Below, piece by piece: positions 5,812 to 56,721 of a DNA stretch of 64,000 bases. The stretch lies in assembly GCA_043802785.1 (NCBI GenBank), contig JAZDKR010000024.1:97-64096 (forward strand). Direction: 5' to 3'. The notes beneath the pieces are model-generated. The model saw nothing but the letters and a program-made list of their open reading frames with translations. It ran no database searches and had not been told where the DNA came from. The position numbers and the translations under genes are program-made. Position 1 is the first letter of the stretch. Every line of letters begins with the position of its first letter. Source of the DNA: Elusimicrobiota bacterium. Its GTDB lineage: Bacteria; Elusimicrobiota; UBA8919.

Positions 5812-5948
5812 TCCCCCAGTTGGAACAGGGTGTAGGGGATAGTGGTTAGGGGATAGTTAAAATCAACGACTTTTCTACACCCTAAATCCTACCCACTATT
5901 CCCTGTCGTTTAACTACTCCCTACTCCCTATTCCCTACTCCCTGCCTT
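5812..5948. repeat. Hairpin made of GGGGATAG-type tandem units plus the inverted copies (ctactccctattccctactccctgcc).
   Basis: Sequence gggtgtaggggatagtggttaggggatag ... ctacaccctaaatcctacccactattccct. Several GGGG runs. Confidence 0.6.
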
Positions 5949-5949
5949 T

Positions 5950-7194
5950 TTATTTCAGCCACACCAGCGGGTCCTGCGGAACACCATTTTTGCGAAATTC
6001 AAAATACAACGACGCATCCTGCGAATAGACGGAAATACCGACGATACCGATATCTTCACCTTTCTGAATATCCTGCTCCTCTTTAACATTTATCTTGTCA
6101 AGATTACCATAAACCGTGTAAAATCCGCCGGAGTGGTCAATAACAACCATTTTTCCGTACGACTTAAAATCGCCCGCAAACACAACTTTTCCTTTGTCAA
6201 CCGCTGCGATATTTTGTCCGAGCGTTGACCTAATCCTGATTCCATTATTTATAATCCATGTATCAAGTTCCGGATGCTTTTGTTTGCCGAAAGTTACAGT
6301 TAAATTATTCCTTAATTCCGACGGTTCACCGTCAATAGGCCATGATATATTACCTTTCTTTTTTGACATTTTTAATCTTTCTAATTGCTCTTCCTCTTTT
6401 TGTCTAACAGTTTTAGTTGCTTTTTTTTCCAAAAGTTTTATTAACTCTGAAAGCATCGTCTCTGAATCCCGCAAATTTGCAACCTCCTGCTCATAAAAGA
6501 CCAGTTTTTTAACTACGGTTGATAATAATTTTTTTTTTTCTTTTTTTTGTCGTGCGTACAATTGTTCAGAGTTTTTTTTCTTTTCTTCAAGTTCTTTTAA
6601 TCCGTTCATCTCCGTTTCAAGTTTTATTTTAATTGTTTCATATTCCTGAACATTTTTTAGCGTCTGCGTGTAAATAAACAATTTTTGCCGTGCTAAAAGT
6701 TGAAGAAACTTATACTGTTTAACCATATCAGCAGACGAATTTGAAGAAAGTATTATTCTTGCAGGATACTGGTCGGTCATGGGTCTCCCTACACCATATT
6801 TATATGCAAATCTTAATTCTTTTTTAAATATATTTTTCCATCTAACCGTTTCAAATTTTGCAGTTTCTAATTTTAATTTCAGTGCATCAATTGATTTTTG
6901 CTGTTTTTTTATTAGTATTTTTGTTCTGTACAATTCGGCTTTTGTGGTTTCAAGTTTCCTTACAGTATTTTCAAGATGCGTTTCAAGAGATGCCTCTTTC
7001 TTCTTTATGGTTTTTATATTATTTTCTTTATGAGAAATTTCCGACTGAACACCGACAAGTTCTTTTCTACTTTCTTTAATTTTCTGTTTATATTCTTTTA
7101 CCTGTTTATCATAATCGGAAGCATAAAGGGCAGGGGTTAGGGTATAGGGTATAGGGTATAGGAAAAGCAAAAACAATAAAATAAATTTTTTCAT
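5950..7194 (-). CDS. envC: Coiled-coil M23 peptidase-domain protein, resembling the murein hydrolase activator EnvC.
   Basis: Signal peptide, a long coiled coil and a C-terminal M23 domain (VVIDHSGGFYTVYGNL). Lies next to ftsX. The N-terminal LYPIPYTLTP stretch is encoded by (GGGTATAG)3. Confidence 0.7.
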   Translation of the reverse strand: MKKFILLFLLFLYPIPYTLTPALYASDYDKQVKEYKQKIKESRKELVGVQSEISHKENNIKTIKKKEASLETHLENTVRKLETTKAELYRTKILIKKQQKSIDALKLKLETAKFETVRWKNIFKKELRFAYKYGVGRPMTDQYPARIILSSNSSADMVKQYKFLQLLARQKLFIYTQTLKNVQEYETIKIKLETEMNGLKELEEKKKNSEQLYARQKKEKKKLLSTVVKKLVFYEQEVANLRDSETMLSELIKLLEKKATKTVRQKEEEQLERLKMSKKKGNISWPIDGEPSELRNNLTVTFGKQKHPELDTWIINNGIRIRSTLGQNIAAVDKGKVVFAGDFKSYGKMVVIDHSGGFYTVYGNLDKINVKEEQDIQKGEDIGIVGISVYSQDASLYFEFRKNGVPQDPLVWLK

Positions 7195-7195
7195 T

Positions 7196-7552
7196 TTATT
7201 TTCTCAATGCTTTCATAAGCGACGATAACATTTTTCCAATTTCTTCTTGTAAACTGCAAACTTTTACAAAACCTTCTTGACTAATATATCCTAAATCTTT
7301 CGCAACCATAACTTGTGTTTCCAATTCTGCTAACGAACCAAATGCTATTGATAAAAACTGTAAATATTCGCCTGTATATTGCCTCCCATATCCTTCCGCT
7401 ATGTTTGATGGAATTGAAACTGACGCCCTTCGCATCTGCGATGTAAGTCCATATATTTCCGTTTTTGGAAAATCCATTGTGGTTTTATATATCAACAATA
7501 CCAACTGATACGATTTTTGCCAAACTATAAGTTCCCGATAACTCTTAAGCAT
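7196..7552 (-). CDS. Four-helix-bundle protein of the family found in 23S rRNA intervening sequences.
   Basis: About 118 aa. The family motifs (IVWQKSYQL ... IPSNIAEGYGR ... FLSIAFGSLAELETQ) are recognisable. Confidence 0.7.
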   Translation of the reverse strand: MLKSYRELIVWQKSYQLVLLIYKTTMDFPKTEIYGLTSQMRRASVSIPSNIAEGYGRQYTGEYLQFLSIAFGSLAELETQVMVAKDLGYISQEGFVKVCSLQEEIGKMLSSLMKALRK

Positions 7553-9695: not shown

Positions 9696-11161
9696 ATATA
9701 AATCAAAATTATTCCCAAAATCAAACCTAAAAAAATCCCGTTAAAACTTCTCAAAAGCGAAACAAAAAAAGGAGTGTGTATGTGGCAGAATGTATTAATT
9801 ATTGAAATCTGACCTATAATACCGACGATAAAAAACGGTTTCCACAAACTAACCCCACAGGTAAGTGTGGGGTTAGTTTTGTATTTCAGATAAATTGCCA
9901 ATATCATAAAAGGATGACCTATTAGGAATTCCTTAAATCGTGGTCGGACATAAAATATTTTTTCTAAAAACAGACGAAAATTATCTTCTAAAGGTGTAGT
10001 TGAACCATAATTCCCGGTTCTGATGATATAAAAGCCAACTGCAATCAGTAAAAATCCAATAAAAATTGCTTCGCCATACAAAAGCGGTTTTTTCAGAAAA
10101 TTTTTTAAGTTACTTTTATACAGCAAATAAATTAAACATATCACTGGCAACAAAAAGGATATTTTTACTCCTCTAAATGTTTCAACGCCAAGCATAAAAT
10201 CTTTCGTGGATAAAAGTGATGATATTACTGTGCCTGATAAAAGTGAAAAAACTGTTATGACTGAAAAAATCAAAACGGTTTTTATTACCGAAAACTTCCC
10301 GTTAAAATTGTAACAAAAACATAGTGGTAAAAGACAAATTACCGGCGATATCAGTGCTATAAGAAATGAAAATAATTTTGTTAGTCCAACATATCTTGTA
10401 AGTTTGGGATTTACTTTTCCGATTACTTCGGGTTTGCCAATACAAAATCCGGAATTTTCAAGAATTTTCTTTGATTCTTTAATATATTCAAGAGCATTAT
10501 CAAGCGTTGTTTGGGACAAGTCCAGAATTATTATTCTAACATTTCTTTCAAATGCAGCACGATTTATCTTTTCTCCGATGGAGTCCCATTGGACAAGATT
10601 TTTTTTATAATCGGCATCCCATCTCAACTTAAAAACTCTGTAACCGCTGCCGGAATTTTTAAGTATTTTTTTAACTTCTTCCTGTTTGGCAAATTCAACA
10701 ATTCCGAATGTATAATTAAAATTATCTGGTATTTCGCCATAAAAATCGTCAGATAAAATGACTGCCAAAACATTCGGATTTTTTCTTGGGATTATGGAAA
10801 TATCGCCCTGAACCGAAAAAATAATATCAAGATTCAATTTTGAAACGACTGAAATTTTTTCTGATGAAACGCCAAGATATTTTTCCTGTGGAAATTTTTT
10901 GAATTCTGCATCCCCATTACCTTCGGCAAAAAAATCCTTCGCTTTTTCGTCGGAAATGACAACAGTATTTATTCCAGCAATTCTAAAATCTGTTAATTTT
11001 TCTACACCGAAAAAATCCACTATATCGTCATATTTAACGGCAAGTGCAACAGAATTACCGGACTGCTCGCAAATCCTGTTCTTTAACGGAGTAAATAAAA
11101 TTCCTAACAGAATTAAAAGAAAACCCGTGTAAATTAAGACAATTTTTAAAATTTTTTTCAT
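9647..11161 (-). CDS. Polytopic membrane protein of unknown function, with an N-terminal extracytoplasmic domain and a C-terminal block of about 8 TM helices.
   Basis: Hydrophobicity pattern only. I see no recognisable catalytic motif. Confidence 0.4.
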   Translation of the reverse strand: MKKILKIVLIYTGFLLILLGILFTPLKNRICEQSGNSVALAVKYDDIVDFFGVEKLTDFRIAGINTVVISDEKAKDFFAEGNGDAEFKKFPQEKYLGVSSEKISVVSKLNLDIIFSVQGDISIIPRKNPNVLAVILSDDFYGEIPDNFNYTFGIVEFAKQEEVKKILKNSGSGYRVFKLRWDADYKKNLVQWDSIGEKINRAAFERNVRIIILDLSQTTLDNALEYIKESKKILENSGFCIGKPEVIGKVNPKLTRYVGLTKLFSFLIALISPVICLLPLCFCYNFNGKFSVIKTVLIFSVITVFSLLSGTVISSLLSTKDFMLGVETFRGVKISFLLPVICLIYLLYKSNLKNFLKKPLLYGEAIFIGFLLIAVGFYIIRTGNYGSTTPLEDNFRLFLEKIFYVRPRFKEFLIGHPFMILAIYLKYKTNPTLTCGVSLWKPFFIVGIIGQISIINTFCHIHTPFFVSLLRSFNGIFLGLILGIILIYIKTRIDANKWHANTRE

Positions 11162-14823: not shown

Positions 14824-14972
14824 GTTAAAATCAGGGTTTAGGGTTTAGGGTTTAGGGTTTAGGGTTTAGGGGTTAGGGTGTAGTTAAAAGTCATTGACTT
14901 TACTATACCCTATCCCCTACACCCTGCCTCTAACTACACCCTATCCCCTACACCCTGCCTCTCTTATTGTCT
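14824..14972. repeat. (GGGTTTA)5-6 telomere-like tract, capable of forming a G-quadruplex, followed by two copies of a roughly 27-bp direct repeat (ctacaccctatcccctacaccctgcctct).
   Basis: Read directly from the sequence. It lies between rpmA and rplU. Confidence 0.8.
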
Positions 14973-19452: not shown

Positions 19453-19625
19453 AAAAACCCCTCCTTTTTTCAGTAGTAAGGATTAAGTTATAAGTTATAA
19501 GAATTAAGAAGTCAGGATTAAGAATTAAGTAGTAAGAATTAAGTAAAAACTTAATCCTTAATCCTTAATCCTTATCATTTACCACTTACCACTTACCACT
19601 TAATCCTACCTTGCCTTATTCTACC
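19453..19625. repeat. Arrays of GGATTAAG / CCTTAAT and CCACTTAC tandem units forming inverted repeats.
   Basis: Sequence aggattaag(n) ... cttaatccttaatccttaatcc ... ccacttaccacttaccactt. Confidence 0.7.
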
Positions 19626-28727: not shown

Positions 28728-29311
28728 CTATTCAATCAAAGTATATGCACCCTCTTGATGCTGGGTCAAATCAAGTCCAATTATCTCATCTATTTCGCTT
28801 ACCCTGACGCCGATGGTTAAATCAACCAATTTGTAAATGATAAATGTCATCGCAAAAGTATAGACAACGGTAACACAAACTGTAATTAACTGCATTATCA
28901 ATTGTTTCGGGTTTCCGAAAAAAAGACCGTTGTTGCCCGCTGGATTTATCAATTTTGAAGCAAAAAGACCCGTTGCCAAAGTTCCTAATATGCCGCTGAT
29001 ACCATGCACCCCAAAAGCATCAAGGGAATCGTCATAGCCCAATTTTGGTTTGATAAGACCGACCGCAACAAAACAGATAACACTAGCCGAAAAACCTATC
29101 AGTATAGCCGATATAACGGCGAAAAAGCAAGCGAGTATCCGAATAAAACCCATTGCAAACTCAAAACGCAAAGAACAATAAAGCACTGCATTAAAATGCC
29201 AAGAACATTTTTTCTTCTAACTATTCCTCCGTAAAAAAATGCAAGCCCTGTCGTCATCAACATCACAAACCCAGCCGATATCAAAACAAAAGCAGTATCT
29301 CCAGAATTCAT
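28728..29311 (-). pseudogene. amtB: Ammonium transporter relic. Only the N-terminal roughly 65 residues and the C-terminal roughly 140 residues remain, in different frames.
   Basis: The two ORFs 29099-29311 and 28728-29186 match the Amt N-terminus (GDTAFVLISAGFVMLMTTGLAFFYGGIVRRKNVL) and C-terminus (DAFGVHGISGILG ...). The span is 584 bp against about 1.2 kb expected. Confidence 0.75.
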
Positions 29312-29815: not shown

Positions 29816-30077
29816 CAGAAAGAATTCCAAAATTTCTAACGTGGTCAAGTGCTTTTTTGGTTTTCCCGAATGAAAAATCTTTAATCCCACTTTGGAATTA
29901 AAGACCTCAATGTCTGACGAACATTTTCTAACCAACTATGGTTTGTAAACTATTTTTTAACTAATACAAACAAAATATATCTTGTTACATATTCTCACTG
30001 TTGTCATTGCTTCGTTGTCCCGACTTGTCGGGACTCCTCGCAATGACGCTTTGCATCAATTTACTCCCGAGCGACCT

Positions 30078-33295: not shown

Positions 33296-33970
33296 TCACC
33301 TCCAAATGAACCAAACAAATAGATAGGATGTGAAAACGGCAACTAATGTGAATGGCAGTCCGATTTTTACGAAATCAAAAAATTTTACGGTATAGCCCTC
33401 TTTTTTTAAGATGCCGCAGGCAACGATATTTGCCGATGCACCTATTGGCGTAATATTCCCTCCGATAGATGCACCTATCAAAAGCCCGAACAAGAATAAC
33501 GACGGACTGACACCAAGATTTGTCGAGACGGACATCGCAACAGGCAACATCGCAGCAAGGTACGGAACATTGTCTATAAACGCCGACAAAAATACAGACA
33601 GAAAAACAATCGCCGTAAAGCCGAGAAATATATTTTGTCCTATCAAACCAGACAGAAATACCTATATTTTTAAAATCCAGCCGTTTAATGTAAGTCCGCC
33701 AACCAAAATAAAAATTGCCATCACATTCCAGTTGATAGCCCAGAAAGCATTTTTTTGTGAAACTGCACCAACCAAAATTAAAATAATTACACTAAGAATT
33801 GAGACCTTTGTTCTTCGGTGGGGAAGTATTACAAAAAGTATGTATGCGAGCAAAAACACAGCAAGAGAAATAAACTCTTTGTTCATAGTAAATCTGATCC
33901 TTTGCGTTTTATCGTCCCATATTTCGTATCTCGTGTAGGGCAAACCTTCAGGTTTGCTTATTGTTCGCAA
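33296..33970 (-). pseudogene. ArsB/NhaD-superfamily permease relic. The N-terminal and C-terminal roughly 100 aa remain; the middle is deleted.
   Basis: Two ORFs (33662-33970 and 33296-33646) match the N-terminus and the C-terminus (IDNVPYLAAMLP ...) of anion-permease-type transporters. About 0.67 kb remain of an expected 1.2 kb. Confidence 0.6.
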
Positions 33971-36524: not shown

Positions 36525-36625
36525 ACACCAGAGATTAGGAGATTAAGAAATTATGAGATTAGGGATGAGGCAAAATCTCAATATCCTAATCTCCTAATCT
36601 CCCAATCTCCTAATCTCTCTTTTTT
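36525..36625. repeat. GAGATTAG tandem and inverted hairpin element.
   Basis: Sequence cagagattaggagattaagaaattatgagattaggg ... ctcaatatcctaatctcctaatctcccaatctcctaatctctc. Confidence 0.7.
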
Positions 36626-38236: not shown

Positions 38237-38309
38237 CTGGGGAGGATGGATTCGAACCATCGTAATGACGGCTCCAAAGGCCGTTGCCTTACCGCTTGGC
38301 TACTCCCCA
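38237..38309 (-). tRNA. tRNA-Gln (anticodon UUG).
   Basis: Cloverleaf folded by hand. Sequence is TGGGGAGTAGCCAAGCGGTAAGGCAACGGCCTTTGGAGCCGTC...GGTTCGAATCC...CTCCCCA. It resembles the E. coli tRNA-Gln 5' half. Confidence 0.7.
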
Positions 38310-38659: not shown

Positions 38660-38880
38660 ACAAAATAAGCGATTTCGTCGCAATGATTACAGCGATTTAG
38701 AAAGAACGATTACGGCGATGTTTTGTATCGCTGGTATCGTTGACTTTATCGCTGTAATCAGTATCTCCGCCTTTGGCGGAAGTTTCCGATACAACAAGAT
38801 TACACGGATTTCATGCCTAATGCAGATCCGCCTTCGGCGGAAAGTCCCGACGGTGTTATCCCCGCATAGGCGGATTGATG
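38660..38880. repeat. Noncoding block with three GATTACRGCGAT boxes (two direct, one inverted) and two CCGCC(TTT/TTC)GGCGG hairpins.
   Basis: Direct reading. Iteron- or operator-like arrangement in a 500-bp stretch with no ORF. Confidence 0.5.
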
Positions 38881-38914: not shown

Positions 38915-40438
38915 TCAAATATATCCATTAGATTTTTGCAGTAAAAATAAAAATAAATGCGCTGGTATAATTGCAACATTTTCAAAAAGTACTGTATCTT
39001 TGCTTATTAAGAAATATTTTTTTATTCTATCAAGAGAGGCAATATCTCTTTTTGTAACATTGTTTTGATATTTTACTTCAATAGCTGTAAATTCATCATT
39101 TGTATTTTTATAGAGATAATCGATTTCCCGCGAATCATCATAATATAACCATAAAAATGTTATCATTTCCTTCATAGGAAGCGATTCTTTTGTCATAGAT
39201 ATATGATTCCCAACTATTCCCTCAATCATATTACCTGTAATTGTATCATCTAACAGCATTTCTGAACTTACTTCGTATCCGTCTTTACCTTTCAACCAAC
39301 TGTTCATTGAATAACACAAAAAAGGATCAAAGAAGAATATTTTTTTATCTGCTTTAAGTTTATATGTATTTTTATTTAGGTCATACGCATAGAACATTCT
39401 TACAAGTAATGATTCTCTTAATATCTCTGTATACGATATTACTGTTTTATGGTCGGTACTATTGTTTATTTCATGAGCAACATCATTGAAACTATATCTG
39501 CTTCCTTGTCTCCTTAATACACCACCAATTAATTCTCTCATAGTGTCTTCATTTTTTACCATCCTTGATAAATCTCCTTTTAAAACATCTACATACCGTT
39601 CATATATCTCATTGTTAATTTTTTCTTCTTTTTTCTCGCCAAAATACTTATTTGAAATATATGAATTTATGGATTCCGGATAGCCACCTGTAATAAGGTA
39701 CATTCTAAATAGCATATACAACTCTTTTTGATACGGAAGCAATTTTCTCACTGCATTATTGAATTCTTCATATTTTTCAATATCAGCCGAATTCATACTA
39801 TCTATTTCGCTATAAAATTGTCTTAAAGATGCAATTAAATTGGTATCCTGATTACCGTGCCACTCGTGAATATGGTTAATCTGTAATACAAATTCTCTAA
39901 ATGATAGTGGGAAGAACATTTTTTCATTCCCTTCAATATCTCTACCGGGAAGTCTTTCCTTTTTGCTTTTTATATCCCACGGATTTGAACCAGTGGCGAT
40001 TATTGAGCAGTTTTCAGTTACACCGCTATCAGCAAGAGTTTTAAGTTCTAAATTCCAACTATCAACAGCTGATATTTCATCCAGAAAAATATAGAGTGGC
40101 TTTTTGTCCATTCCAATGTTACTTAAGAAAAACTTAATAGCGTCGCCTAATTCCTTTCTTGTTTTACCTGTTAAATTATCGCATGAAAGATAAAATATGG
40201 ATTTTGGGTCAACATTTTTTTTGTCGATTAATTCCTTTATTGTTTGTTTTATCCAAACAGTTTTCCCTACCTGACGCGGTCCTCTTACAACATAAATATT
40301 TTGAGGTTGAGGATCCATCCAAACTCTGTTAAATGTAATTGGTTTAGAAGCCAATTTCTTTAAATGTGGATCATATAAAGAAAAGTTTTTACCAAATTTC
40401 CACCATAAGTTTGCTTCAGCAATTTCTTGTGTTTTCAT
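38915..40438 (-). CDS. AAA+ ATPase, which I recall as the COG1373-like AAA_14/DUF4143 family.
   Basis: P-loop VVRGPRQVGKT, Walker B FLDEISAV, a TGS motif and a C-terminal ...AIEVK... region. 507 aa. Confidence 0.55.
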   Translation of the reverse strand: MKTQEIAEANLWWKFGKNFSLYDPHLKKLASKPITFNRVWMDPQPQNIYVVRGPRQVGKTVWIKQTIKELIDKKNVDPKSIFYLSCDNLTGKTRKELGDAIKFFLSNIGMDKKPLYIFLDEISAVDSWNLELKTLADSGVTENCSIIATGSNPWDIKSKKERLPGRDIEGNEKMFFPLSFREFVLQINHIHEWHGNQDTNLIASLRQFYSEIDSMNSADIEKYEEFNNAVRKLLPYQKELYMLFRMYLITGGYPESINSYISNKYFGEKKEEKINNEIYERYVDVLKGDLSRMVKNEDTMRELIGGVLRRQGSRYSFNDVAHEINNSTDHKTVISYTEILRESLLVRMFYAYDLNKNTYKLKADKKIFFFDPFLCYSMNSWLKGKDGYEVSSEMLLDDTITGNMIEGIVGNHISMTKESLPMKEMITFLWLYYDDSREIDYLYKNTNDEFTAIEVKYQNNVTKRDIASLDRIKKYFLISKDTVLFENVAIIPAHLFLFLLQKSNGYI

Positions 40439-41329: not shown

Positions 41330-41548
41330 ATCTTGCTGTGCGTGACTGCGGAGCATCAATTTATAAGGTCATTGCGAGCGTTAGCGCTTTGTGACAGAAG
41401 TTCCCGATAGTACTTGTCATTGCGAGGTGAAACCGCCCGCCAAACTGTTACCGAAATTGTGAAGTATTACACATAGGCGGGTGGCAATCCCATAGCGAGA
41501 TTGCTTCGTCGGTCGCCCGAGGCGACCTCCTCGCAATGACACTTCACC
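41330..41548. repeat. Cluster of CATTGCGAGG / CCTCGCAATGAC palindromic elements.
   Basis: gtcattgcgagcg..., gtcattgcgaggtgaaaccgcccgcc ... cctcgcaatgacac. Relatives at 29990-30075, 44150-44290 and 48270-48312. Confidence 0.7.
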
Positions 41549-42348
41549 CTACTTCTTTCTGTATGCCTCTAAATATGAGTCGCAATAAAGTTGTTTGCCG
41601 AGGAGCAGTTCTGTTGTTATCATTGAATTCATCAATTCTTTATCAAGTGGATTTAAAATTGCAGCGTCAAGTCCTGCCTCCAAAGCCATAACAAGAAATG
41701 TTCTGTCAACGAGCATTCTGTCAAGTGTTCCCTGTGACACATTTGACAAACCCAAAATTGTTTTCGGAGGTGGGTCGCAAATAATTTTACATTGTTTGAT
41801 TGTTTCCAAGACAGCACGGGAATGATCCTGGGCAACATTTACAGGAAGAATAACCGCATCAATATAAAGATTTTCCATCTCAATTCCATACTCCATTGAT
41901 GAGCAACTATATTCGCCGCAATCTCTAACCGTGCTTCTGCATTCGCAGGAACTCCTGACTTAGTCATTGTCAAAGCGATAACTTTTGAGTTGTATTTTTT
42001 TGCAAGAGGAAGAAGAACATCAAGTTTTTCTTTCTGCCCTGAAGTAGAATTCAAAAATGAGCCGGGACCTGCCAATGAAAGCCCTCTTTCCATAACAACT
42101 AATTTTGTCGTGTCAACAGCGAGTGGTTTATCAGTCACTTCACGAATTACCGTAATTAACCATTCCATATCTTTCAATGGATCTATTGATGCTGGTCCCA
42201 CATTTACATCAAGGACATCAGCACCTGCTTCTAATTGTTTTTTCGCAAGTTCCTGAATTATCAGTTTGTTTTTTGTCTGAATTGCTTCACTGACATTTTT
42301 AAACATCCCGTTAATCTTTTCACCGATAATAAGCATAAACACCCCCAT
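41549..42348 (-). pseudogene. Pterin-binding methyltransferase (MeTr/AcsE-like, methyltetrahydrofolate:corrinoid methyltransferase family), split by a frameshift near 41839-41896.
   Basis: N-terminal MLIIGEKINGMFKNVSEAIQ ... LDVNVG and a C-terminal half in the second ORF. The frames overlap by about 58 nt, with no homopolymer at the junction. Confidence 0.6.
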
Positions 42349-42365
42349 TAAAATCCGTGAATCGT

Positions 42366-42417
42366 GTAGTTGCCCGATTTATCGGGCATAAAGGCGCTCA
42401 ATAAATTGAGCAACTAC
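42366..42417. repeat. Complete 52-bp element bounded by terminal inverted repeats, gtagttgcccgatttatcgggcataaaggcgctcaataaattgagcaactac.
   Basis: The two ends, gtagttgc and gcaactac, are inverted repeats of each other. Confidence 0.8.
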
Positions 42418-42477
42418 AAAACTGCGACTACACAAACCATGCAACATTGAAATTCTTCACCTGCGGTGAACCTACTC

Positions 42478-44149: not shown

Positions 44150-44290
44150 TTTTGTTTGTCATTGCGAGGTGAAACCACCCGCCCCAAAGGGGCGAGGCCT
44201 CGCCATATGCGGGTGGCAATCCCAAAAAATAGATTGCTTCGTCCTCCGACTTCGTCGGAGTCCTCGCAATGACAACCAAATTAAAATTTG
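44150..44290. repeat. CATTGCGAGG-family palindromic element pair.
   Basis: gtcattgcgaggtgaaaccacccgcc ... cctcgcaatgacaac. Confidence 0.7.
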
Positions 44291-44390: not shown

Positions 44391-45884
<1,494 letters not shown>

Positions 45885-45936
45885 AACATAGCCGTTGTCG
45901 TGTAGTTCAAATTCCCTATTCCATATTCCCTACCTA

Positions 45937-47232: not shown

Positions 47233-48882
47233 ATTATCACAAATTTTTTCGGCAAAATCAAGTAATTTTTTTGTTTTGCCGAGTGAATCTGTTTCAGAGT
47301 ATGTCCTTAAAATCGGCTCTGTTCCCGACGGACGAAGCAATAGCCAACCTGTCCCGCCAAGGCGGGACGGATCAAAAATTATTTTTATTCCGTCATAGGT
47401 TCTGATTTCCTTGATCCCGCCGAGGCGAGACGCGAATTGCCACGAATTTCCGCCAAAGGCGGACGAATTGGGACGAATTTTTTGTTCAATCTGTTTAACA
47501 AATTCTTGCTTATCAACGGGCTTTGAAAGTTTTATATCTCTTCTTAAATAATATGATTTCCCGAATCTTTTTTGCAAATCATCAACTAACTGTGAAAGTT
47601 TTTTCTTTGTTTGCGAAAGCATCTCGGTAATTAAAAGTGCATTTAAGATACCGTCTCGTTCCGGTATGCTGCCTTTCCATCCGTAACCGCCGGATTCTTC
47701 ACCACCGAGCAAAACATTTTCAGCGAGCATTTTTTCACAAACATACTTGAAACCGACAGGAACCTCTTCAAAAGGGAGACAAAATTTTTTCGCAATTCTT
47801 TCGGAAAGATACCCAAGTGAAATCGCCTGAACAACTTTTCCTTTTATTTTTCTTCCTTCTACAAGATACAACAAAATCAGAGGAAAAACAATATGCGGTG
47901 AAAGATATCTGCCTTTGTCGTCTATAACACCCAAGCGGTCAGCGTCGCCGTCAAAAGCAAAACCTACGGCTGCCCCATTTTTCAATACCACTTTTTTTAG
48001 TTCTGTGAGATTTTTTTCTATCGGCTCGGGATTTACTCCGGCAAATAATGGGTCATGAGAATTATGTATTGAATAAATCTTTGAGATTCTTCGTCCCGTT
48101 ATGCGGGACTCAGAATGACTTTGCGAGTCATTTTTGAATCCGCCACAGACGGACTCAAAAATACCAACGCCGCTTCCATGCATATAATCAAGGACAATTT
48201 TGGATTTTGATGATGGATTCAATCTAACAAGTGATTTCAGATATTTTTTGTAATCGCTGATAATATCCACTCTTCGCGTCATTGCGAGGTCGTCACTGCG
48301 ACCTCGCAATGACAATTGTTGGATATCCTCATTATTAGTTTTGACAGCACTCTTATACAGATGTTTTGAAATTGTATTTATGATTTTTTCCGAAACAGAA
48401 CCTCCGTATTGAAGTTTTATTTTTAGACCGTTCCAGTCGGGCGGATTATGACTTGCCGTTATCATCACCCCAAGACAATTGTTTTTTTTACAAAAAAATG
48501 AGACCGATGGCGAAGTTGCTGCCGTCTGCGAAACCGCCGAATGTATCCCATTCGCAGAAATAACTCTTGCAACATGGAGTGCAAATTTCTCCGAAAGAAA
48601 CCTGTTGTCATACCCGACGATAACGACAGGGGATAGGGGGTAGGGGATAGGGTGTAGCGGCGAATGTAAATTCGCTAAATTTGTCCGCCTAGGCGGACCG
48701 CTACACCCTACTCCCTCCACACTACACTCTGCCTTTATATAATCCGCAATCGCCTGAGCAACTATTCCAACATTCTCAAAGGTAAAGTCCCTTGCAATTA
48801 TCCCGCGCCACCCGTCAGTACCAAACTTAATGGCAGGGGATAGGGGATAGGGGATAGGGGATAGTAGTTTTTGTTTTTCCAT
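47194..48882 (-). CDS. Phosphomannomutase / phosphoglucomutase family enzyme carrying about five in-frame repeat insertions.
   Basis: FGTDGWRG, TASHNP, RPSGTEP. Inserts at about 48834-48870, 48627-48729, 48270-48312, 48069-48132 and 47415-47472. Confidence 0.8.
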   Translation of the reverse strand: MEKQKLLSPIPYPLSPAIKFGTDGWRGIIARDFTFENVGIVAQAIADYIKAECSVEGVGCSGPPRRTNLANLHSPLHPIPYPLSPVVIVGYDNRFLSEKFALHVARVISANGIHSAVSQTAATSPSVSFFCKKNNCLGVMITASHNPPDWNGLKIKLQYGGSVSEKIINTISKHLYKSAVKTNNEDIQQLSLRGRSDDLAMTRRVDIISDYKKYLKSLVRLNPSSKSKIVLDYMHGSGVGIFESVCGGFKNDSQSHSESRITGRRISKIYSIHNSHDPLFAGVNPEPIEKNLTELKKVVLKNGAAVGFAFDGDADRLGVIDDKGRYLSPHIVFPLILLYLVEGRKIKGKVVQAISLGYLSERIAKKFCLPFEEVPVGFKYVCEKMLAENVLLGGEESGGYGWKGSIPERDGILNALLITEMLSQTKKKLSQLVDDLQKRFGKSYYLRRDIKLSKPVDKQEFVKQIEQKIRPNSSAFGGNSWQFASRLGGIKEIRTYDGIKIIFDPSRLGGTGWLLLRPSGTEPILRTYSETDSLGKTKKLLDFAEKICDNLTTAKQTQNISR

Positions 48883-50510: not shown

Positions 50511-51534
50511 TAAAATAGTCAACTGTTTTCTTCAAGCCGTCGCTGAATTTAATTTTTGCCGACCAGCCGAGAATTTTTTTCGCTTTTCTCACATCAAGCG
50601 AACTTTTGAATAACTCGCCAGTCCTCTGATATTCATATACTGGTTTTTGAGAATATCCTGTTATTTTTGAAAGTTCGTAAAAAAGTTGGTTTACCGACTC
50701 TGTCTTTCCGGTTCCTATATTAAAAATTTCGTTTTCGCCTTTGATAAGTGCAATCAAATTCGCATTGACGATATCTGAAACAAAAACATAGTCACGCATC
50801 TGCTCGCCGTCGCCAAAAATATTTACACAGCCCTTCCTTAAGGTCTTTTGAGGAAGGGCTGGGTTTACCTGCTCATTCGCCAGAATTCTGTTGATGAAAA
50901 TCGTCACAACACCCGCTTCGCCGCGAGGGTCCTGACGGGGTCCGTAGACATTGCCATACCTTAAAGCAGTGTATTTTAATCCAGATATTTTTGCGTAATA
51001 ATTAAGATAATACTCAACTGACCGTTTTGCAATTCCATATGGCGAAAGTGGTTCGGGGGTTTTGTTTTCCGTCGGTGACTCTCCACGACGAGTTCCACAT
51101 TCACCATACATCACACCACCACTGGATGCAAAAATGAATTTTTTCACACCGTACCGGACAGAGTTTTCCAAAAGATTTATTGTTCCCAGAATGTTTGTCG
51201 TCGCATCAAATATCGGGTCGGCAACTGATTTTCTCACATCTATCTGTGCAGCGTGATGATTTACAATATCCGGCTTTTCCGTCTCAAATATCTGCATAAT
51301 CCGTTTTTTATTCGTGATGTCTGTGTTGTAAAATTTTGCTTTCGGATTTAAGTTTTCTTTTCTGCCAGTAATTAAATTATCAACAACAATCACACTATGC
51401 CCCTGTTGAATATAAGCATCTACAATATTTGAACCAATAAACCCCGCCCCACCTGCTACTAAAATTTTTAATCCCATTATTGAGGTTGAATCTCCATAAA
51501 TTTTAATTTCCATACTAAAAAAATTGCTTCCCAA
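50497..51534 (-). CDS. NAD-dependent epimerase/dehydratase (SDR family). The likely start is MGLKILVAGGAGFIGS, at 51477.
   Basis: Rossmann GxxGxxG and the YxxxK catalytic pair. Confidence 0.7.
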   Translation of the reverse strand: MGSNFFSMEIKIYGDSTSIMGLKILVAGGAGFIGSNIVDAYIQQGHSVIVVDNLITGRKENLNPKAKFYNTDITNKKRIMQIFETEKPDIVNHHAAQIDVRKSVADPIFDATTNILGTINLLENSVRYGVKKFIFASSGGVMYGECGTRRGESPTENKTPEPLSPYGIAKRSVEYYLNYYAKISGLKYTALRYGNVYGPRQDPRGEAGVVTIFINRILANEQVNPALPQKTLRKGCVNIFGDGEQMRDYVFVSDIVNANLIALIKGENEIFNIGTGKTESVNQLFYELSKITGYSQKPVYEYQRTGELFKSSLDVRKAKKILGWSAKIKFSDGLKKTVDYFRKCE

Positions 51535-52307
51535 ATAATATTTTTCGAAATCTTGGATTTGCCAATCGATCTATCGGCAAAAAATATAGGGTACTCAAAA
51601 ATTTTATATCCGAGTTTGTGTGCCCTGTATTTCATTTCTATCAAAAATCCATAACCCTCTGACTTCACTTCGTCAAGATTTATATTTTCCAGCACTTTAC
51701 GACGGAAACCCATAAAACCAGATGTGCAGTCATTAACAGGCATACATAAAACTGTTTTCGCATACAAATTCCCCAGACGGGATATTATTTTTCTATGGAC
51801 GGGCATTGAATTACAACCGCCTTTTACATAACGAGAACCGACTACTAAATCATAACTTTTGAGTTTTTTTAGGAACCCCAAAAAACATTCCGGGTTATGG
51901 GAAAAATCTGCATCCATAGTAAAAATAAAATCAAAATCTCTTACCAAAGCCCACTTAAATCCTTGAATGTATGCTGTCCCAAGTCCAAGTTTTTTTTCAC
52001 GATGAATAATTTCTAATTGAGATTGCGAAGATTGTTCCAATTCTGTCATATGAGATTGCTTCGTCGTCCCGATCTTATCGGGACTCCTCGCAATGACACT
52101 TTGTGCCGCTTTTAACCCTTCCGATATCTCTCCCGTTCCGTCGGGCGAATTATCGTCAATGATTAAGAGATTGAGATCGCCCGCCACACGGATCGGCGAG
52201 TCCGCCTTTGGCGGAAGATTGAGAACTTGGTCAACAATCTTTTCTATATTTTCTCTCTCGTTATATGTCGGGATTATAATCAAAACTTTACTTTTTTTTA
52301 GTGACAT
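51477..52307 (-). CDS. GT2 glycosyltransferase, polyprenol-phosphate mannosyltransferase-like. Carries two in-frame repeat insertions at about 52175-52214 and 52040-52105.
   Basis: IIIPTYNEREN ... DDNSPDGT. The inserts encode PPKADSPIRVAGD and ...ARSPDKIGTTKQSHMTEL... Confidence 0.7.
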   Translation of the reverse strand: MSLKKSKVLIIIPTYNERENIEKIVDQVLNLPPKADSPIRVAGDLNLLIIDDNSPDGTGEISEGLKAAQSVIARSPDKIGTTKQSHMTELEQSSQSQLEIIHREKKLGLGTAYIQGFKWALVRDFDFIFTMDADFSHNPECFLGFLKKLKSYDLVVGSRYVKGGCNSMPVHRKIISRLGNLYAKTVLCMPVNDCTSGFMGFRRKVLENINLDEVKSEGYGFLIEMKYRAHKLGYKIFEYPIFFADRSIGKSKISKNIIWEAIFLVWKLKFMEIQPQ

Positions 52308-53436
52308 ATTTTAATGTTTTCTTTGAATAATTGTAATAAGAAATATGCGGGCGACCTTGTTTATCAAGCATTATGGATGTATCAAATCCGACAATACCTT
52401 CGGCATCAATCGTCTGAATTTTCCATTCAGAACCCGTCCAGTAAGCATATTTAAGGTCAGAGTTGCCATAATACGAAACGTGCGGAGTCACATCAGGCAA
52501 CTTTGCATCCAGAGTTATTGATGTATATTCACCAACATAACCTTCACTGTCAACCGTCTGGATAGCCCATGCAGAACCAGTCCAGTGAGCATATTTTAAA
52601 TCCCTATTGGTAGCATCATAATATGCTATATGCGGAAAATTATTGCTATCAACCACTATGGAACTATCTTCACCAACTTCACCTGTTGAATCAACCGTCT
52701 GAATATCCCACGAAGAACCAGTCCAACGAGCATATTTTAAATCACCGTTGGTAGAATCATAATATGCTATATGCGGAAAATTATTGCTATCAATCGCGAT
52801 GGAGGTGAACTTGCCTACCGCACCGGCTGAATCAACCATCTGAATATTCCACGAAGAACCAGTCCAATGAGCATACTTTAAGTCGCCGTTGGTAGAATCA
52901 TAATATGCTATATGTTTGAAATCGTTACTAACCGCTATGGAACTATCTTCACCGACTTCGCCTATTGAATCAACCGTCTGAACATCCCACGATAAACCAT
53001 CCCAACGAGCATACTTTAAATCCTTGTTGGTAGAATCATAATACGCTATATGTGAAAAATTGCTACTGACTGCTATAGATGTGAACTTGTATGTTTCACC
53101 GTTAGACGGAGTATATTGTTTTTCCCAAGAATTGCCTGTCCATTTAAGATACCCTACACCTTTTTTGCTACAAAACGAAAGATTAGGAAAATCATTACTA
53201 TCAAGGCACATTGAAGCATACTCTCCTTCTTCATCACTTTCTGAAGTAAGCGTTTGGATATCCCAGCCGTCAACTGGCAAAGATACCACCACTTTTTCGT
53301 CTGTTAGATTTACATTTAATCTTCTTTCCGACTCACAATAAAGGCAGGAAGTGGTAAGTAGTAAGTGGTAAGTGGTAAGGATTAAGAAGGCAGAATTAAG
53401 TAACTTGTTCATCTGTACAATCTGTAATTTTCTCAT
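52288..53436 (-). CDS. Secreted protein made of about 6 tandem repeats of roughly 46 aa (YYDSTNGDLKYA[HR]WTGSSW.IQTVDS.G.VG..SSI ... PHIA).
   Basis: Signal peptide. At the DNA level this is a tandem unit of about 138 bp with high identity. Confidence 0.6.
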   Translation of the reverse strand: MRKLQIVQMNKLLNSAFLILTTYHLLLTTSCLYCESERRLNVNLTDEKVVVSLPVDGWDIQTLTSESDEEGEYASMCLDSNDFPNLSFCSKKGVGYLKWTGNSWEKQYTPSNGETYKFTSIAVSSNFSHIAYYDSTNKDLKYARWDGLSWDVQTVDSIGEVGEDSSIAVSNDFKHIAYYDSTNGDLKYAHWTGSSWNIQMVDSAGAVGKFTSIAIDSNNFPHIAYYDSTNGDLKYARWTGSSWDIQTVDSTGEVGEDSSIVVDSNNFPHIAYYDATNRDLKYAHWTGSAWAIQTVDSEGYVGEYTSITLDAKLPDVTPHVSYYGNSDLKYAYWTGSEWKIQTIDAEGIVGFDTSIMLDKQGRPHISYYNYSKKTLKYVTKKK

Positions 53437-53537: not shown

Positions 53538-54866
53538 TTATTCTCCATCCTCTACATACGACAGTCCAATAAAAAAAGTAATCGGTAATAATATACGCGC
53601 GGTCGTTAAATTATTCTCAAAAAAACCGGCAATCATCAGCATTATGATAGAATACCCAACAGCAAGGTTTAGTGTGCATCTAACACTTCCTTTTTCAGCC
53701 ATCCGTGCACGCTTAAACGCCATTATGGAATTGCCAAACCAAAACAGGACAAAAAGAATTAAACCAATTAAACCCTCGCTAACACCGACATTCAGATATG
53801 TATTATGCGGATGTCCCTTGAGTACATTTAATATATCTTTTTCACTACTTCCCCCTTTATAACACCTGGAAACAATCCATAATAACGGATATTGCTCCTT
53901 TTCCTTTTCAAAATATACTTCTACCTCTTTCCCCCAATTTTCATAGCCGACACCAATTATAGGATGGTTTTTCATTATTTTCAATGCTGTTCCCCACATC
54001 CATAATCGCTCAACATTACTTAAATTTTCTTTCGTATCAAATATACTTATAATTCTACTTTTTATGCTGAAAGAATACTTAAATATACCAATAAACAAAA
54101 GGAAAATCAATCCGGTTCCTAATATGAACCATTTTATTTTTTTTCTCAATAGTATCAATAGTACCGTCAATAAAGTTGCTACATAATATGTTCTTGATCC
54201 ATTCAAAAGAACCGCAATAAAATTAAGCAACGTCAAAACAAATAAACCAACTTTTATTTTCACATTTTCATTAGAATAACAAAAAAATATAAAAGATACT
54301 ATTGCTATTATACTGTAATACCCTCCGGTGTGTAAAAAATTCCTGAAATTCAAACCGATAAATCTGCCGTTTATAAACGGTTGGTTTTTCAAAAATGGAT
54401 AATCAAAATGAAAAATATGCTGTAAAATCCCCAGCAATACAACAAAAGAAGCAACAACCAAAGTAGAATAAACGATTACTTTTATTTTCTTGATATGTAA
54501 CTGCGGAATAACAAAATACGGAAGATGATCCCAAAATTTCCCTCCGTATTTAATCCAATTTGAAGGATTAAAAAAAACTCTCATTGCACGCCAAAAATAA
54601 AGAAAAAGCAGCGGCAACCCTTCCCAACTGGAAAAAAACTTCTTTCCCAACACGAGATTTATTAAAACAATTAAAAGCAGCAAGCCCAGAATAATATTAG
54701 TAACAGCAATTGAGATTGATGTACTTACACCATAAATAACAAGAAGTATAAATATCGTATCGGTAAATATTTTTTTGTCAGTCAGAATGTTTTTCATATC
54801 TATTTTGTCAACTAAATTGTAGTTGCCTGATTTATCAGGCATAACATCGCCCAATAAATTGGGCAA
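53538..54866 (-). CDS. O-antigen ligase/polymerase family membrane protein. The likely start is MKNILTDKK, near 54797.
   Basis: About 10 TM helices and a periplasmic loop with HPHNTYLNVGVSEGLIG. The reported N-terminal 23 residues are encoded by a miniature element. Confidence 0.65.
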   Translation of the reverse strand: MPNLLGDVMPDKSGNYNLVDKIDMKNILTDKKIFTDTIFILLVIYGVSTSISIAVTNIILGLLLLIVLINLVLGKKFFSSWEGLPLLFLYFWRAMRVFFNPSNWIKYGGKFWDHLPYFVIPQLHIKKIKVIVYSTLVVASFVVLLGILQHIFHFDYPFLKNQPFINGRFIGLNFRNFLHTGGYYSIIAIVSFIFFCYSNENVKIKVGLFVLTLLNFIAVLLNGSRTYYVATLLTVLLILLRKKIKWFILGTGLIFLLFIGIFKYSFSIKSRIISIFDTKENLSNVERLWMWGTALKIMKNHPIIGVGYENWGKEVEVYFEKEKEQYPLLWIVSRCYKGGSSEKDILNVLKGHPHNTYLNVGVSEGLIGLILFVLFWFGNSIMAFKRARMAEKGSVRCTLNLAVGYSIIMLMIAGFFENNLTTARILLPITFFIGLSYVEDGE

Positions 54867-54870
54867 CTAC
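54819..54870. repeat. GTAGTTGC/GCAACTAC miniature element. It supplies the TAG stop of the capD-like gene.
   Basis: Sequence gtagttgcctgatttatcaggcataacatcgcccaataaattgggcaactac. Confidence 0.8.
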
Positions 54871-56721
54871 TTGTCTATATTCGCGGGGGCATAATTGGGA
54901 ACCATTTCTTTTAATTTAAGAATGATTTTTTCCTCGTCCATTATAACAGCAAAATGCTCCAGTTCCCTTATATCTTTCCTGATTTTAGATGGGTCAAGAT
55001 TTTCAGGAGTGGTTACATATATTTTTCTATGCTTTGTAATTTTATCTTTTTCTTTGTCCAAAAGTATTTCTTCGTAAAGTTTTTCGCCGGGACGAAGTCC
55101 AACATATTTAATTGAAATATCTTTGTCTAATTTAAGCCCCGAAAGAGCAATAAGGTTTTTTGCCAAATCAACAATTTTTATCTGCTCACCCATATCCAAA
55201 ATAAAAATTTCGCCGACGCCAGAACCCATCGCACCCGCCTGTAGGACAAGTTGCGCCGCCTCGGGAATACTCATAAAATATCTTCGAACATCCGGGTGAG
55301 TTACCGTTACAGGTCCGCCATCCTCAATCTGTTTTTTGAACAATGGAATTACGCTGCCTGTTGAACCGAGAACATTTCCGAAACGAACCGCTATAAACTT
55401 TGTTTTGCTGAACCCTGCTTTTGCCTGCAAAATTTTCTCCGCAACCCTCTTTGTTGCACCCATAACATTTGCTGGATTGACTGCTTTATCGGTAGAAATA
55501 AGAACAAACCGTTCAACTTTGTAATGATGTGAGGCATAAATTAAATTTCTGGAACCAATAATATTATTTTTTATCGCCGAGACCGGATTTTCTTCCATCA
55601 GAGGAACATGCTTATGCGCTGCAGCGTGAAAAACGACATCCGGCCTGTAAGTAAAAAATATGTGCCTCAATAACCCGACATCCTTTATATCTCCAATTAT
55701 TGTCTTATATTTCAATTGGGGATAGAGGGTGGAAAATTCAACTCCGAGATAATAAACATAATTTTCGTGGTTATCCAAAAGAATCAAAAGTTCAGGCGAA
55801 AATTTCACTATTTGCCGACACAACTCCGCACCAATTGAACCACCGGCACCGGTGACCAAAACCCGTTTGTTTCTGATGTAGGAACTTATTTCCGTTTCGT
55901 CTATTTTTACCGATTCCCTGCCCAACAAATCATCCGGCTGAACTTTGCGCGGCTTCACTTCAAGATGCCCGGATATTATTTTATCAAACCCTGGAACGAT
56001 TTTTATATTTGCATCCGTCATCTCGCAATACGAAAGAATGTCTCTTATTGCTTCGCCTTTCACAGACGGTATTGCCAAAATTATTTCTTCAACATCGTAT
56101 TTTGAAACCACATCAGGAATAATTTTTCTGCCACCGAAGATTTTCAAACCGAATATAGAATGCCTTTTTTTGGCAGTGTCGTCGTCAATAAAACCGACTA
56201 TATTCAAGCCAGCGAGCAAATTATTCTGACACTCCCTCAAAACCGCTATTCCCGCCTGACCCGCACCGACAATCAGAACATTCTTTTTTTTTTGTTGTCA
56301 GTGATTCCTTGAATCTTTCTCTTATTAAACGGGTAAAAAACCTGACACCCGATACAAAAACAGTGCACAAAATAAAGTCAATTATGAAAACGGAACGAGG
56401 AAATCCGAAAAAAGTATGATAAAAAAATACGGTTGCAGCGAAAACGACATTAGCAAGAAAATTAGCGAGTATTATATCCCATAAATCGCCAATACTTACA
56501 TATCTCCACAAACCTGTGAACAGTCCGAAAAAATAAAAGAAAAGAAGTTTTATGATAATCAAAAACGGAAGAGTTCTTAAAATAACTTGCCAGTTTTCAG
56601 GAAAAAATGTAAATTCAAACCGAAGATAAAACGCCGAGATATATGCAATAATGATCAGGCACAAATGAAGCAGCACAATCAGAGGCCTTCGTAAATTAAC
56701 TATTATTTTTTTTATGTTCAT
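54867..56721 (-). pseudogene. CapD/WbpM/PglF-like membrane-anchored polysaccharide dehydratase, split by a +1 frameshift at an A10 tract (56284-56293).
   Basis: The N-terminal ORF (56221-56721) has 4 TM helices. The C-terminal ORF has the SDR dehydratase domain. The alternative frame across the tract reads KNVLIVGAGQAGIAVLRECQ. A9 would restore the reading frame. Confidence 0.75.

Follow-up and report, generated by a model that had tools for sequence, protein, structure and literature searches.

Introduction

Short palindromic repeats that are translated as part of bacterial proteins have been best known from the Rickettsia palindromic elements (RPEs) and from a few genomes rich in repetitive extragenic palindromes (REPs). 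The CGTC/TGTC-tagged REPs of Di Nocera, De Gregorio, and Rocco (2013; PMC3733652) have an unpaired CGTC, TGTC, or CCTC tag at one end, uninterrupted stems of 8 to 9 bp that start with AT, loops of 4 to 5 nucleotides (nt), and a 3-nt tail with the consensus CCA. They occur in several phyla, frequently as dimers, and are also translated inside genes, including Rickettsia RPE-4 (equated there with CGTC-4) and RPE-6 (equated with CGTC-1); a dedicated transposase was not found by the authors. In-frame fusions of such palindromic elements were already known (PMC10969869). Here, we analyze a 64,000-nt stretch (the window) of a metagenome-assembled genome from a free-living Elusimicrobiota bacterium (GenBank assembly GCA_043802785.1, contig JAZDKR010000024.1, positions 97 to 64,096), in which the gene of a putative polyprenol-phosphate mannosyltransferase of glycosyltransferase family 2 (GT2) carries two kinds of palindromic repeat in frame: a GC-rich mini-hairpin, TCCGCC-N3-GGCGGA, at what we call site 1, and an element with a conserved ATTGC/GCAAT shell around a variable center at site 2.

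The site 2 element resembles the CGTC/TGTC REPs of PMC3733652 in its unpaired (C/T)GTC head, its ATT...AAT stem, and its 3-nt tail (CTC in the window; CCA in alphaproteobacteria, where the form is CGTCATT...AATCCA). Both kinds of repeat are dispersed, singly or as dimers, and lie mainly between genes, with a minority of copies intragenic and translated; they occur in several phyla and with no transposase seen nearby. The geometry is different, as the site 2 element has a 5-bp stem in place of one of 8 to 9 bp, followed by an unpaired conserved stretch and then a variable nested hairpin, and the dimers in the window are tail to tail, an arrangement that is rare among the published ones. Moreover, none of the peptides listed for four CGTC families in Additional file 3 of that paper (VIPAKAGI, VIPGLDPGIH, VIPWLDHGI, and others) matches VIARS..TKQS, HCEE..DEAI, or SLRG.., the strings encoded in our window. 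Because the described stem and loop geometry differs and the listed peptides are unmatched, we regard the site 2 element as a CGTC-like family absent from the catalog of PMC3733652.

The RPEs are similar in being in-frame palindromic repeats of unrelated housekeeping genes, read in several frames and considered compatible with protein folding, and the phosphomannomutase of R. conorii also bears one. They differ in sequence, in host (an obligate intracellular alphaproteobacterium), and in size, classic RPE-1 being about 150 bp long and the elements of the window 15 to 50 nt. GTAG REPs and REPINs, which are mobilized by REP-associated tyrosine transposases (RAYTs), are likewise small hairpins, often dimeric, that carry an unpaired tag of four nucleotides, and genuine GTAG copies are present in the window, but the elements in the GT2 gene lack the GTAG tag. 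The palindromes of Thermomicrobium roseum (CCGSSCC-N3,4-GGSSCGG; PMC3733652) are also short, GC-rich, and present in many copies, with a 3- to 4-nt loop and nested palindromic inserts; in that species, a GTAG REP is the guest and the palindrome its target, whereas here the mini-hairpin stands alone or is itself the guest in a REP shell. A search of Rfam at gathering thresholds matched only a tRNA, and permissive thresholds added only sub-threshold small nucleolar RNA noise, while the literal strings CATTGCGAG, GTCATTGCGA, ERSDEAI, and LRFARND retrieved primers or nothing from the literature. The kind of insertion is known, in Rickettsia and other bacteria; what is new is these members, this lineage, and the unusually high density.

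An intact mannosyltransferase gene with two extended loops

The GT2 open reading frame (ORF) is intact and encodes 276 amino acids (aa), against 229 to 247 aa in most homologs. Its product has 100% identity to the NCBI entry MFH0947870.1, annotated as [quoted passage not shown] matches Pfam PF00535 (Glycos_transf_2; E value of 2e-26; 93.3 bits, above the gathering cutoff of 23.3), and contains the motifs PTYNEREN and IIDDNSPDGT. The columns that are invariant among 24 aligned homologs, including D51, D52, and D132-A-D134, are all retained. An AlphaFold2 model with a mean predicted local distance difference test score (pLDDT) of 82 has a confident core, with the inserts as coil, and the solved structures ranked best by Foldseek are those of dolichyl-phosphate mannose synthase (DPMS; 5mm1 and 5mlz, E value of 1e-16), followed by ArnC and GtrB. 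The model confirmed a predicted GT-A fold nearest to DPMS, the DXD motif and the N-terminal DD motif are both conserved, and the gene looks functional.

On alignment, the excess length of the protein is predicted to be two loops. Insert 1 (residues ~31 to 44) lies between helix 18-29 and strand 45-51, and residues 31 to 40 have an average pLDDT of 62; insert 2 (residues ~67 to 97) follows helix 58-74 and precedes strand 98-102, with a pLDDT below 50 at residues 75 to 93. Both sites are modeled as alpha-to-beta connections of the GT-A fold, and we take the loops to be on the face opposite the nucleotide-sugar site, as in Rossmann-like GT-A folds in general. The suggestion, made from the sequence before this analysis (the original prediction), that such elements are tolerated in coding DNA agrees with the intact ORF, with the retention of the invariant columns, and with the modeling of the inserts as low-confidence coil in alpha-to-beta loops.

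Two families of dispersed palindromes

Positions of the elements are collected in Table 1. At site 1, the original prediction had proposed that the peptide between the two N-terminal motifs was encoded by a CCGCC-N3-GGCGG hairpin from a dispersed family. The dispersed family is there: this pattern occurs four times in the window (38767, 38828, 47450, and 52202), against 0.01 expected from shuffled sequences, and all four matches share the 15-nt core TCCGCC-TTY-GGCGGA in varying orientation. Of the positions that had been assigned to the family elsewhere in the window, 38767, 38828, and 47450 match, and the one at 47350 turned out to be a variant hairpin, GTCCCGCCAAGGCGGGAC, with a loop of 4 nt. 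The coding claim held in part, since the mini-hairpin encodes only LPPKAD and the remainder of PPKADSPIRVAGD is specified by the neighboring 25 nt, an imperfect hairpin of which no other copy is present in the window even at three mismatches. Across 129 loci examined, only the window and locus L129 contain the exact TCCGCC-N3-GGCGGA hairpin. Perfect GC-rich hairpins in general number 49 matches in the window (about 33 distinct), against about 5 expected, and because the genome has a GC content of 38%, they stand out strongly.

The cattgc/gcaatg element that had been placed about 25 codons downstream is indeed present and begins 27 codons after D44. The pattern ATTGCTTCGT-N10-26-CCTCGCAATGAC has four exact matches in the window (30006, 41500, 44233, and 52055), against 0.00 expected from shuffles, and a fifth shell copy with one mismatch lies at 44548 in the adenosylhomocysteinase gene. 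In total, the 64-kb window holds five shell copies, two variants, and two dimers, and four of the seven shell-type copies are within genes. We thus confirmed that the repeats observed in the GT2 gene are real and well above chance.

The shell element is 33 to 50 nt long and has a consistent anatomy: an unpaired (C/T)GTC head, a 5-bp ATTGC/GCAAT stem, a conserved inner stretch of 6 to 7 nt in which GAGGAG stands opposite CGACGAA without Watson-Crick pairing, a center of 10 to 26 nt, and a CTC or CCA tail. The center is often a nested, variable GC-rich hairpin and in its minimal form a 2-bp stem. The head is TGTC in the GT2, adenosylhomocysteinase, 41500, and 44233 copies and CGTC in the 30006 copy and in alphaproteobacterial copies; the CTC tail of the window copies is replaced by CCA in most high-GC genomes among the matches listed. 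Center stems differ from copy to copy yet pair (TCCCGAC/GTCGGGA, GTCGCC/GGCGAC, CTCCGAC/GTCGGAG, and, twice, TCCCGAT/ATCGGGA), and a copy at 44559-44577 has a stem identical to that of the inner hairpin at site 2 with a different loop. Other stems in the window open alike, with (G)TCC(C)G.., and the mini-hairpin of the TCCGCC type is the same type of unit as the one nested in the center of the shell element.

As read from the sequence, five of the six frames of the shell are free of stop codons. Three reading frames are used by this kind of shell, as VIARS..TKQS in GT2, CHSEES..DEAIS in the adenosylhomocysteinase, and SLRG..LAMT in the phosphomannomutase/phosphoglucomutase (PMM/PGM), and since the shell is translated in all three, the peptide sequence is not what is conserved. 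In every window copy with the ATTGCTTCG arm, the tag is on the coding strand; nearly all genes of the window are on one strand. The element in the adenosylhomocysteinase gene corresponds to a 22-residue gap against PDB 7o5l, and the hairpins in the 3' part of the PMM/PGM gene coincide with gaps against PDB 1tuo. As a side observation, longer duplicated blocks with 77 to 87% identity surround the single intergenic shell copy (25246-25492/30144-30390, 29411-29536/30486-30611, and 29722-29809/30794-30881).

TABLE 1 Palindromic elements of the window and the GT2 gene that bears two of them
Feature	Position	Strand	Remarks
GT2 polyprenol-phosphate mannosyltransferase gene	51477-52307	(-)	Bearer of the inserts; assigned by ORF, PF00535, NCBI name, and Foldseek
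Site 1 insert, 40 nt	52176-52215	(-)	Encodes (L)PPKADSPIRVAG(D); without counterpart in most homologs and in L128
Site 1 insert with 9-nt flanking direct repeats AGATTGAGA	52168-52224		Repeats at 52168-52176 and 52216-52224
Mini-hairpin TCCGCCTTTGGCGGA	52201-52215		6-bp stem, 3-nt loop; four window copies; folds on either strand
Second, imperfect GC-rich hairpin of site 1 insert, ATCGCCCGCCACACGGATCGGCGAG	52176-52200		Fold prediction
Site 2 element, sense TGTC-ATTGCGAGGAG-[hairpin]-CGACGAAGCAAT-CTC	52052-52098	(-)	Encodes (S)VIARSPDKIGTTKQS; absent from L128 and DPMS 5mlz
Inner hairpin GTCCCGAT-CTT-ATCGGGAC	52066-52084		Nested; center of site 2 element
Third extra segment, 33 nt	52018-52050	(-)	Approximately HMTELEQSSQS; bounded by 9-nt direct repeat
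Site 2-type element in adenosylhomocysteinase gene	44545-44591	(-)	In frame, in another reading frame; one mismatch
Perfect palindrome GTCATTGCGAGGTCG..CGACCTCGCAATGAC in PMM/PGM gene	48278-48313	(-)	15-bp stem; third frame, SLRGRSDDLAMT
Variant element GTC-ATTCT-GAG-[TCCCG..CGGGA]-CGAAGAAT-CTC in PMM/PGM gene	48085-48126	(-)	Absent from L128
GC-rich mini-hairpins, 3' part of PMM/PGM gene	47351-47463		47351-47368 and 47449-47463; imperfect at ~47405
Intergenic tail-to-tail dimer	41418-41545		ATTGC-shell element plus second type, GTCATTGCGAGGTGAAACC.CCCGC..GCGGGTGGCAATCCCA
Second copy of the same tail-to-tail dimer	44160-44275		Spacer between adenosylhomocysteinase and TraF genes
Single intergenic ATTGC-shell copy	30003-30048		
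Two intergenic TCCGCC-TTY-GGCGGA copies	38766-38841		38766-38780 and 38827-38841; between gene 38915-40438 and tRNA 38237-38309

Comparison with homologs and a syntenic relative

The extra segments at both sites are missing from most of 23 homologs, the excess falling after QVLNL and after GLKA in the alignment, and DPMS 5mlz has nothing matching GT2 residues 67 to 90. A closer comparison is offered by the relative L128 (GCA_016218625.1), which is syntenic for the genes of GT2, an epimerase, a nucleoside triphosphate (NTP)-transferase, a cupin, PMM/PGM, MetK, adenosylhomocysteinase, and TraF; L128 has an additional unannotated ORF following GT2 and two more that separate MetK from adenosylhomocysteinase. 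Its proteins share 73 to 93% amino acid identity with those of the window, but it lacks ten inserts that the window genes carry: two in GT2, four in PMM/PGM, two in adenosylhomocysteinase (the shell element there being a 20-residue gap), and one each in the epimerase and cupin, with none in MetK. The PMM/PGM hairpins at 47351-47463 are gaps against L128 as well. Nine of the ten window-specific inserts are predicted to fold as stable hairpins (-9.6 to -28.7 kcal/mol), and the tenth, of 45 nt (PMM/PGM gene, 47431-47475), contains the TCCGCC hairpin. All of them are in frame. The comparison with DPM1-type sequences, which the original prediction had named as its check, thus came out in its favor, as the segments at both sites are extra relative to most homologs, the DPMS structure, and the syntenic relative. 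As judged by these alignments, the extra segments of the GT2 gene have been shown to be insertions that are copies of dispersed repeats.

A consistent target-site duplication was sought around all ten inserts, and none was found; a flanking repeat above chance length was seen at one of the ten, inside a pre-existing hexamer array. A DDE-type miniature inverted-repeat transposable element was rejected as a candidate because no consistent, fixed-length duplication accompanies the ten inserts. The 9-nt repeat that flanks the site 1 insert may itself predate it, because the empty site 1 of homolog P0003 is a (CTCAAT)n array, and the repeat is probably part of such an array older than the insert. 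At site 2, a 9-nt direct repeat of the tail of the element, TGAGATTGC, is present at 52018-52026 and 52051-52059 and bounds the third extra segment, whose exact placement is ambiguous because of it. Homolog P0002 has a different, 21-nt insert at this same end of the element.

The spacer of L128 that is equivalent to the one between the adenosylhomocysteinase and TraF genes has the same dimer shells with different centers. In addition, the gene called as TraF_2 in L128 begins upstream of its dimer (10657-10760), which would then be translated in the signal-peptide region, unlike the corresponding window dimer, which is located just upstream of the start codon.

History of the two sites

Four homologs, P0002 to P0005, carry the site 2 element at the same position and with the same junctions, so it did not arise independently in the window genome. 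The original prediction of two independent insertions therefore needs revision: both are insertions, but the families are not fully independent, the GC mini-hairpin being the type of unit nested in the shell, there are three extra segments instead of two, and the site 2 element is shared with these homologs. The site 2 centers in the homologs vary, with GC-GAA-GC in P0005, GTCCC-ACA-GGGAC in P0004, and a decayed hairpin in P0002. The shell, however, is ~90 to 100% identical among the GT2 carriers, where third codon positions elsewhere in the gene are 52 to 60% identical.

The REP-bearing GT2 alleles are not grouped together in a neighbor-joining tree (0 of 100 bootstraps), and a single clade of such alleles was rejected on this basis. 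P0002 looks mosaic, being P0014-like overall and P0003-like beside the element. This non-clade pattern, the shared junctions, and the mosaic P0002 are compatible with one old insertion at site 2 that was passed on through recombination, with several separate gains, and with precise loss.

The same two loops hold different inserts in other lineages (P0008, P0014, P0030, P0033, P0007, and P0015). Site 1 of P0008 has an in-frame GTAG-tagged REP (L125, ~5076-5114), and P0033 has at site 1 a TCCGCC hairpin whose loop harbors a further nested hairpin and at site 2 two tandem TCCGCC-N3-GGCGGA units. The element is found at the same site in independent ENA, JGI, NCBI, and Logan assemblies.

Distribution beyond this genome

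We scanned for the shell in one genome per species, and the figures that follow describe the matches listed and are lower bounds. The same 22 specified bases of the shell are present in at least about 15 phyla with GC contents of 31 to 71%. Hosts include Bradyrhizobium and other Alphaproteobacteria, Gammaproteobacteria, Patescibacteria, Chloroflexota, Planctomycetota, Zixibacteria, Verrucomicrobiota, Bacteroidota/Ignavibacteria, Myxococcota, Bacillota, Armatimonadota, Fibrobacterota, Elusimicrobiota, and others. In genomes below 55% GC, 9 of 53 copies are in ORFs of at least 200 codons, and 44 are outside them. Orientation with respect to flanking genes is unbiased elsewhere (17 sense and 13 antisense copies in 3' regions).

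The element was also found on 72 IMG/VR contigs, with at least one copy on each. One of these, L201 (IMGVR_UViG_3300035179_000834), is a genuine phage fragment with capsid, SPP1-type portal, and SU10 adaptor genes, and six ATTGC-shell copies (3118, 5885, 8086, 8541, 9231, and 13241) lie between its structural genes. No mobilizing enzyme was found among the ten ORFs scanned on this contig, which encode only structural proteins and a helix-turn-helix protein. Phages could ferry the shell element between lineages.

How the inserts could arise and persist

We consider it likely that the inserts are selfish or neutral miniature palindromes of the REP-like kind, whose survival in genes depends on the reading frame, on stop codons, and on how well a loop tolerates them. 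Two kinds of element, the 15-nt TCCGCC-N3-GGCGGA mini-hairpin and the 33- to 50-nt shell with its variable GC-rich center, would spread through the genome. Copies would land anywhere, and a genic copy would survive only if the reading frame is kept, no stop codon falls in the frame used, and the peptide occupies a dispensable, solvent-exposed loop; in GT2, the model suggests that the element would simply be translated as a disordered loop. Spread would probably require hairpins in single-stranded DNA, as for REP/RAYT or IS200-type elements; we base this on the lack of a regular target-site duplication and on the nested hairpins that hairpin loops themselves receive. Centers turn over while shells stay fixed, given that the L128 dimers share shells but not centers, and hairpin loops appear to be where nested hairpins are received.

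Several observations weigh against this explanation. Neither a Y1/HUH (Y1_Tnp) nor a RAYT nor a DDE transposase was found among the 24 window ORFs scanned. In addition, pure neutrality does not predict a shell that is far better conserved than the third codon positions around it; such conservation implies constraint at the nucleotide level, gene conversion, or a re-insertion that is recent. Finally, a tag that is always on the coding strand could mean a role at the RNA level, but the genes here are nearly all on one strand and orientation elsewhere is unbiased. We rejected orientation as an argument for a function in RNA, as other genomes show no bias.

Alternatively, the hairpins might be functional nucleic acid elements kept by selection, such as mRNA stabilizers, RNase barriers, translation-pause sites, or single-stranded DNA motifs for a host factor, with the coding effect secondary. 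This would account for a shell that is nearly invariant even though synonymous sites of GT2 are near saturation, for the recurrence of the same bases across phyla of very different GC content, for centers that differ but still pair, and for the coincidence of tag strand and sense strand throughout the window. We also note, by our own inference, that tandem sheared G.A pairing is conceivable for the purine-rich strand. The sequence GCGAAGC, present in the P0005 copy, is a very stable DNA mini-hairpin. We nonetheless regard selection for such a function as unlikely, since the elements are patchy among close homologs, their genic positions are loops of variable length anyway, orientation is unbiased in other genomes, Rfam has no match, and the minimal center has a stem of just 2 bp.

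The original prediction had gone further and suggested that coding DNA, or particular sequences in it, might be actively targeted. Site 1 has taken three inserts in three lineages (the window, the GTAG REP of P0008, and P0033), each beside an AATCT-containing direct repeat, and the P0033 hairpin shares the left junction AATCT|TCCGCC with the window. The share of window shell copies that lie inside genes and the failure of the REP-bearing alleles to form a clade point the same way. However, at a coding density of ~90% (a rough figure from the ORF map), random insertion would strike genes more often than is seen, and the great majority of the low-GC-genome copies elsewhere (44 of 53) are intergenic. 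Target-site duplications are likewise not consistent, the one notable flanking repeat being in a pre-existing (CTCAAT)n array, and both junctions are common to the REP-bearing GT2 alleles, suggesting one ancestral insertion followed by recombination. Targeting is not needed either, because a selection filter on dispensable loops explains different inserts in the same two loops equally well, and we think it improbable; this part of the original prediction is not supported.

That the segments are ordinary lineage-specific loop extensions, ancestral segments lost elsewhere, or assembly artifacts, their likeness to repeats being coincidental, is very hard to credit. Both sites do vary in length in the family, and the window does come from a metagenome-assembled genome, but the exact multicopy matches far exceed chance, nine of ten inserts are palindromic DNA with the TCCGCC hairpin in the tenth, every insert keeps the reading frame, and independent assemblies have the same element at the same site.

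Other repeats and genes of the window

The window is rich in further repeats. GTAG-tagged REP-like hairpins (TGTAGTTGCCTGATTTATCAGGCA and relatives), often in inverted pairs, lie at 187-274, 42365-42419, 45792-45886, and 54818-54872. Tandem 7-nt repeats of the AGGATTA, GAGATTA, and GGGGATA types fill intergenic DNA as inverted blocks (5820-5956, 14826-14969, 19469-19607, 36530-36618, 48620-48743, and 48828-48864) and extend into coding DNA, as PIPYPLSP in the PMM/PGM gene (~48631-48645) and as (GCAGATT)x4 in the GT2 homolog of L125.

Possible broken genes are located at 41549-42348, 28728-29186, and 33296-33646; a Pterin_bind domain is divided over two overlapping ORFs, an ammonium transporter is represented by a C-terminal piece only, and a CitMHS transporter is likewise just a piece. 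Out-of-frame repeat insertions could be the cause. The gene upstream of GT2 (52288-53436) encodes at least four tandem repeats of ~47 aa (141-nt DNA repeats, 52501-53061) and has only a weak match, to DUF7253. L121 and L122 each have a counterpart at the equivalent position, and L126 has an unannotated 372-aa ORF there. A gene for a 23S rRNA intervening-sequence protein (bAvd-like; PF05635, E value of 2e-40) lies amid housekeeping genes at 7196-7552.

Implications

Taken together, these results extend the in-frame palindromic decoration of proteins to a free-living bacterium of a candidate phylum, at a density of ten hairpin inserts in five of seven neighboring housekeeping genes relative to a syntenic genome. 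The inserts also matter for annotation, as they lengthen proteins and yield recurrent strings such as VIARS..TKQS, HCEE..DEAI, and LLR..ARND. For protein evolution, the clade is a natural experiment on which loops tolerate 5 to 26 extra residues in GT-A, adenosylhomocysteinase, phosphohexomutase, and Rossmann epimerase folds.

The CGTC-like repeat shell common to many phyla and phages is the part most worth following. It is conceivable, though we hold this only tentatively, that the ATTGCGAGGAG...CGACGAAGCAAT shell is one extremely conserved element of ~15 phyla and of phages, with a non-Watson-Crick purine strand recognized by a widespread machinery and a loop that is a favored landing site for GC hairpins, and hence a pan-bacterial mobile or functional motif. 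If so, the dense in-frame decoration of Elusimicrobiota housekeeping enzymes would be a visible by-product of its activity.

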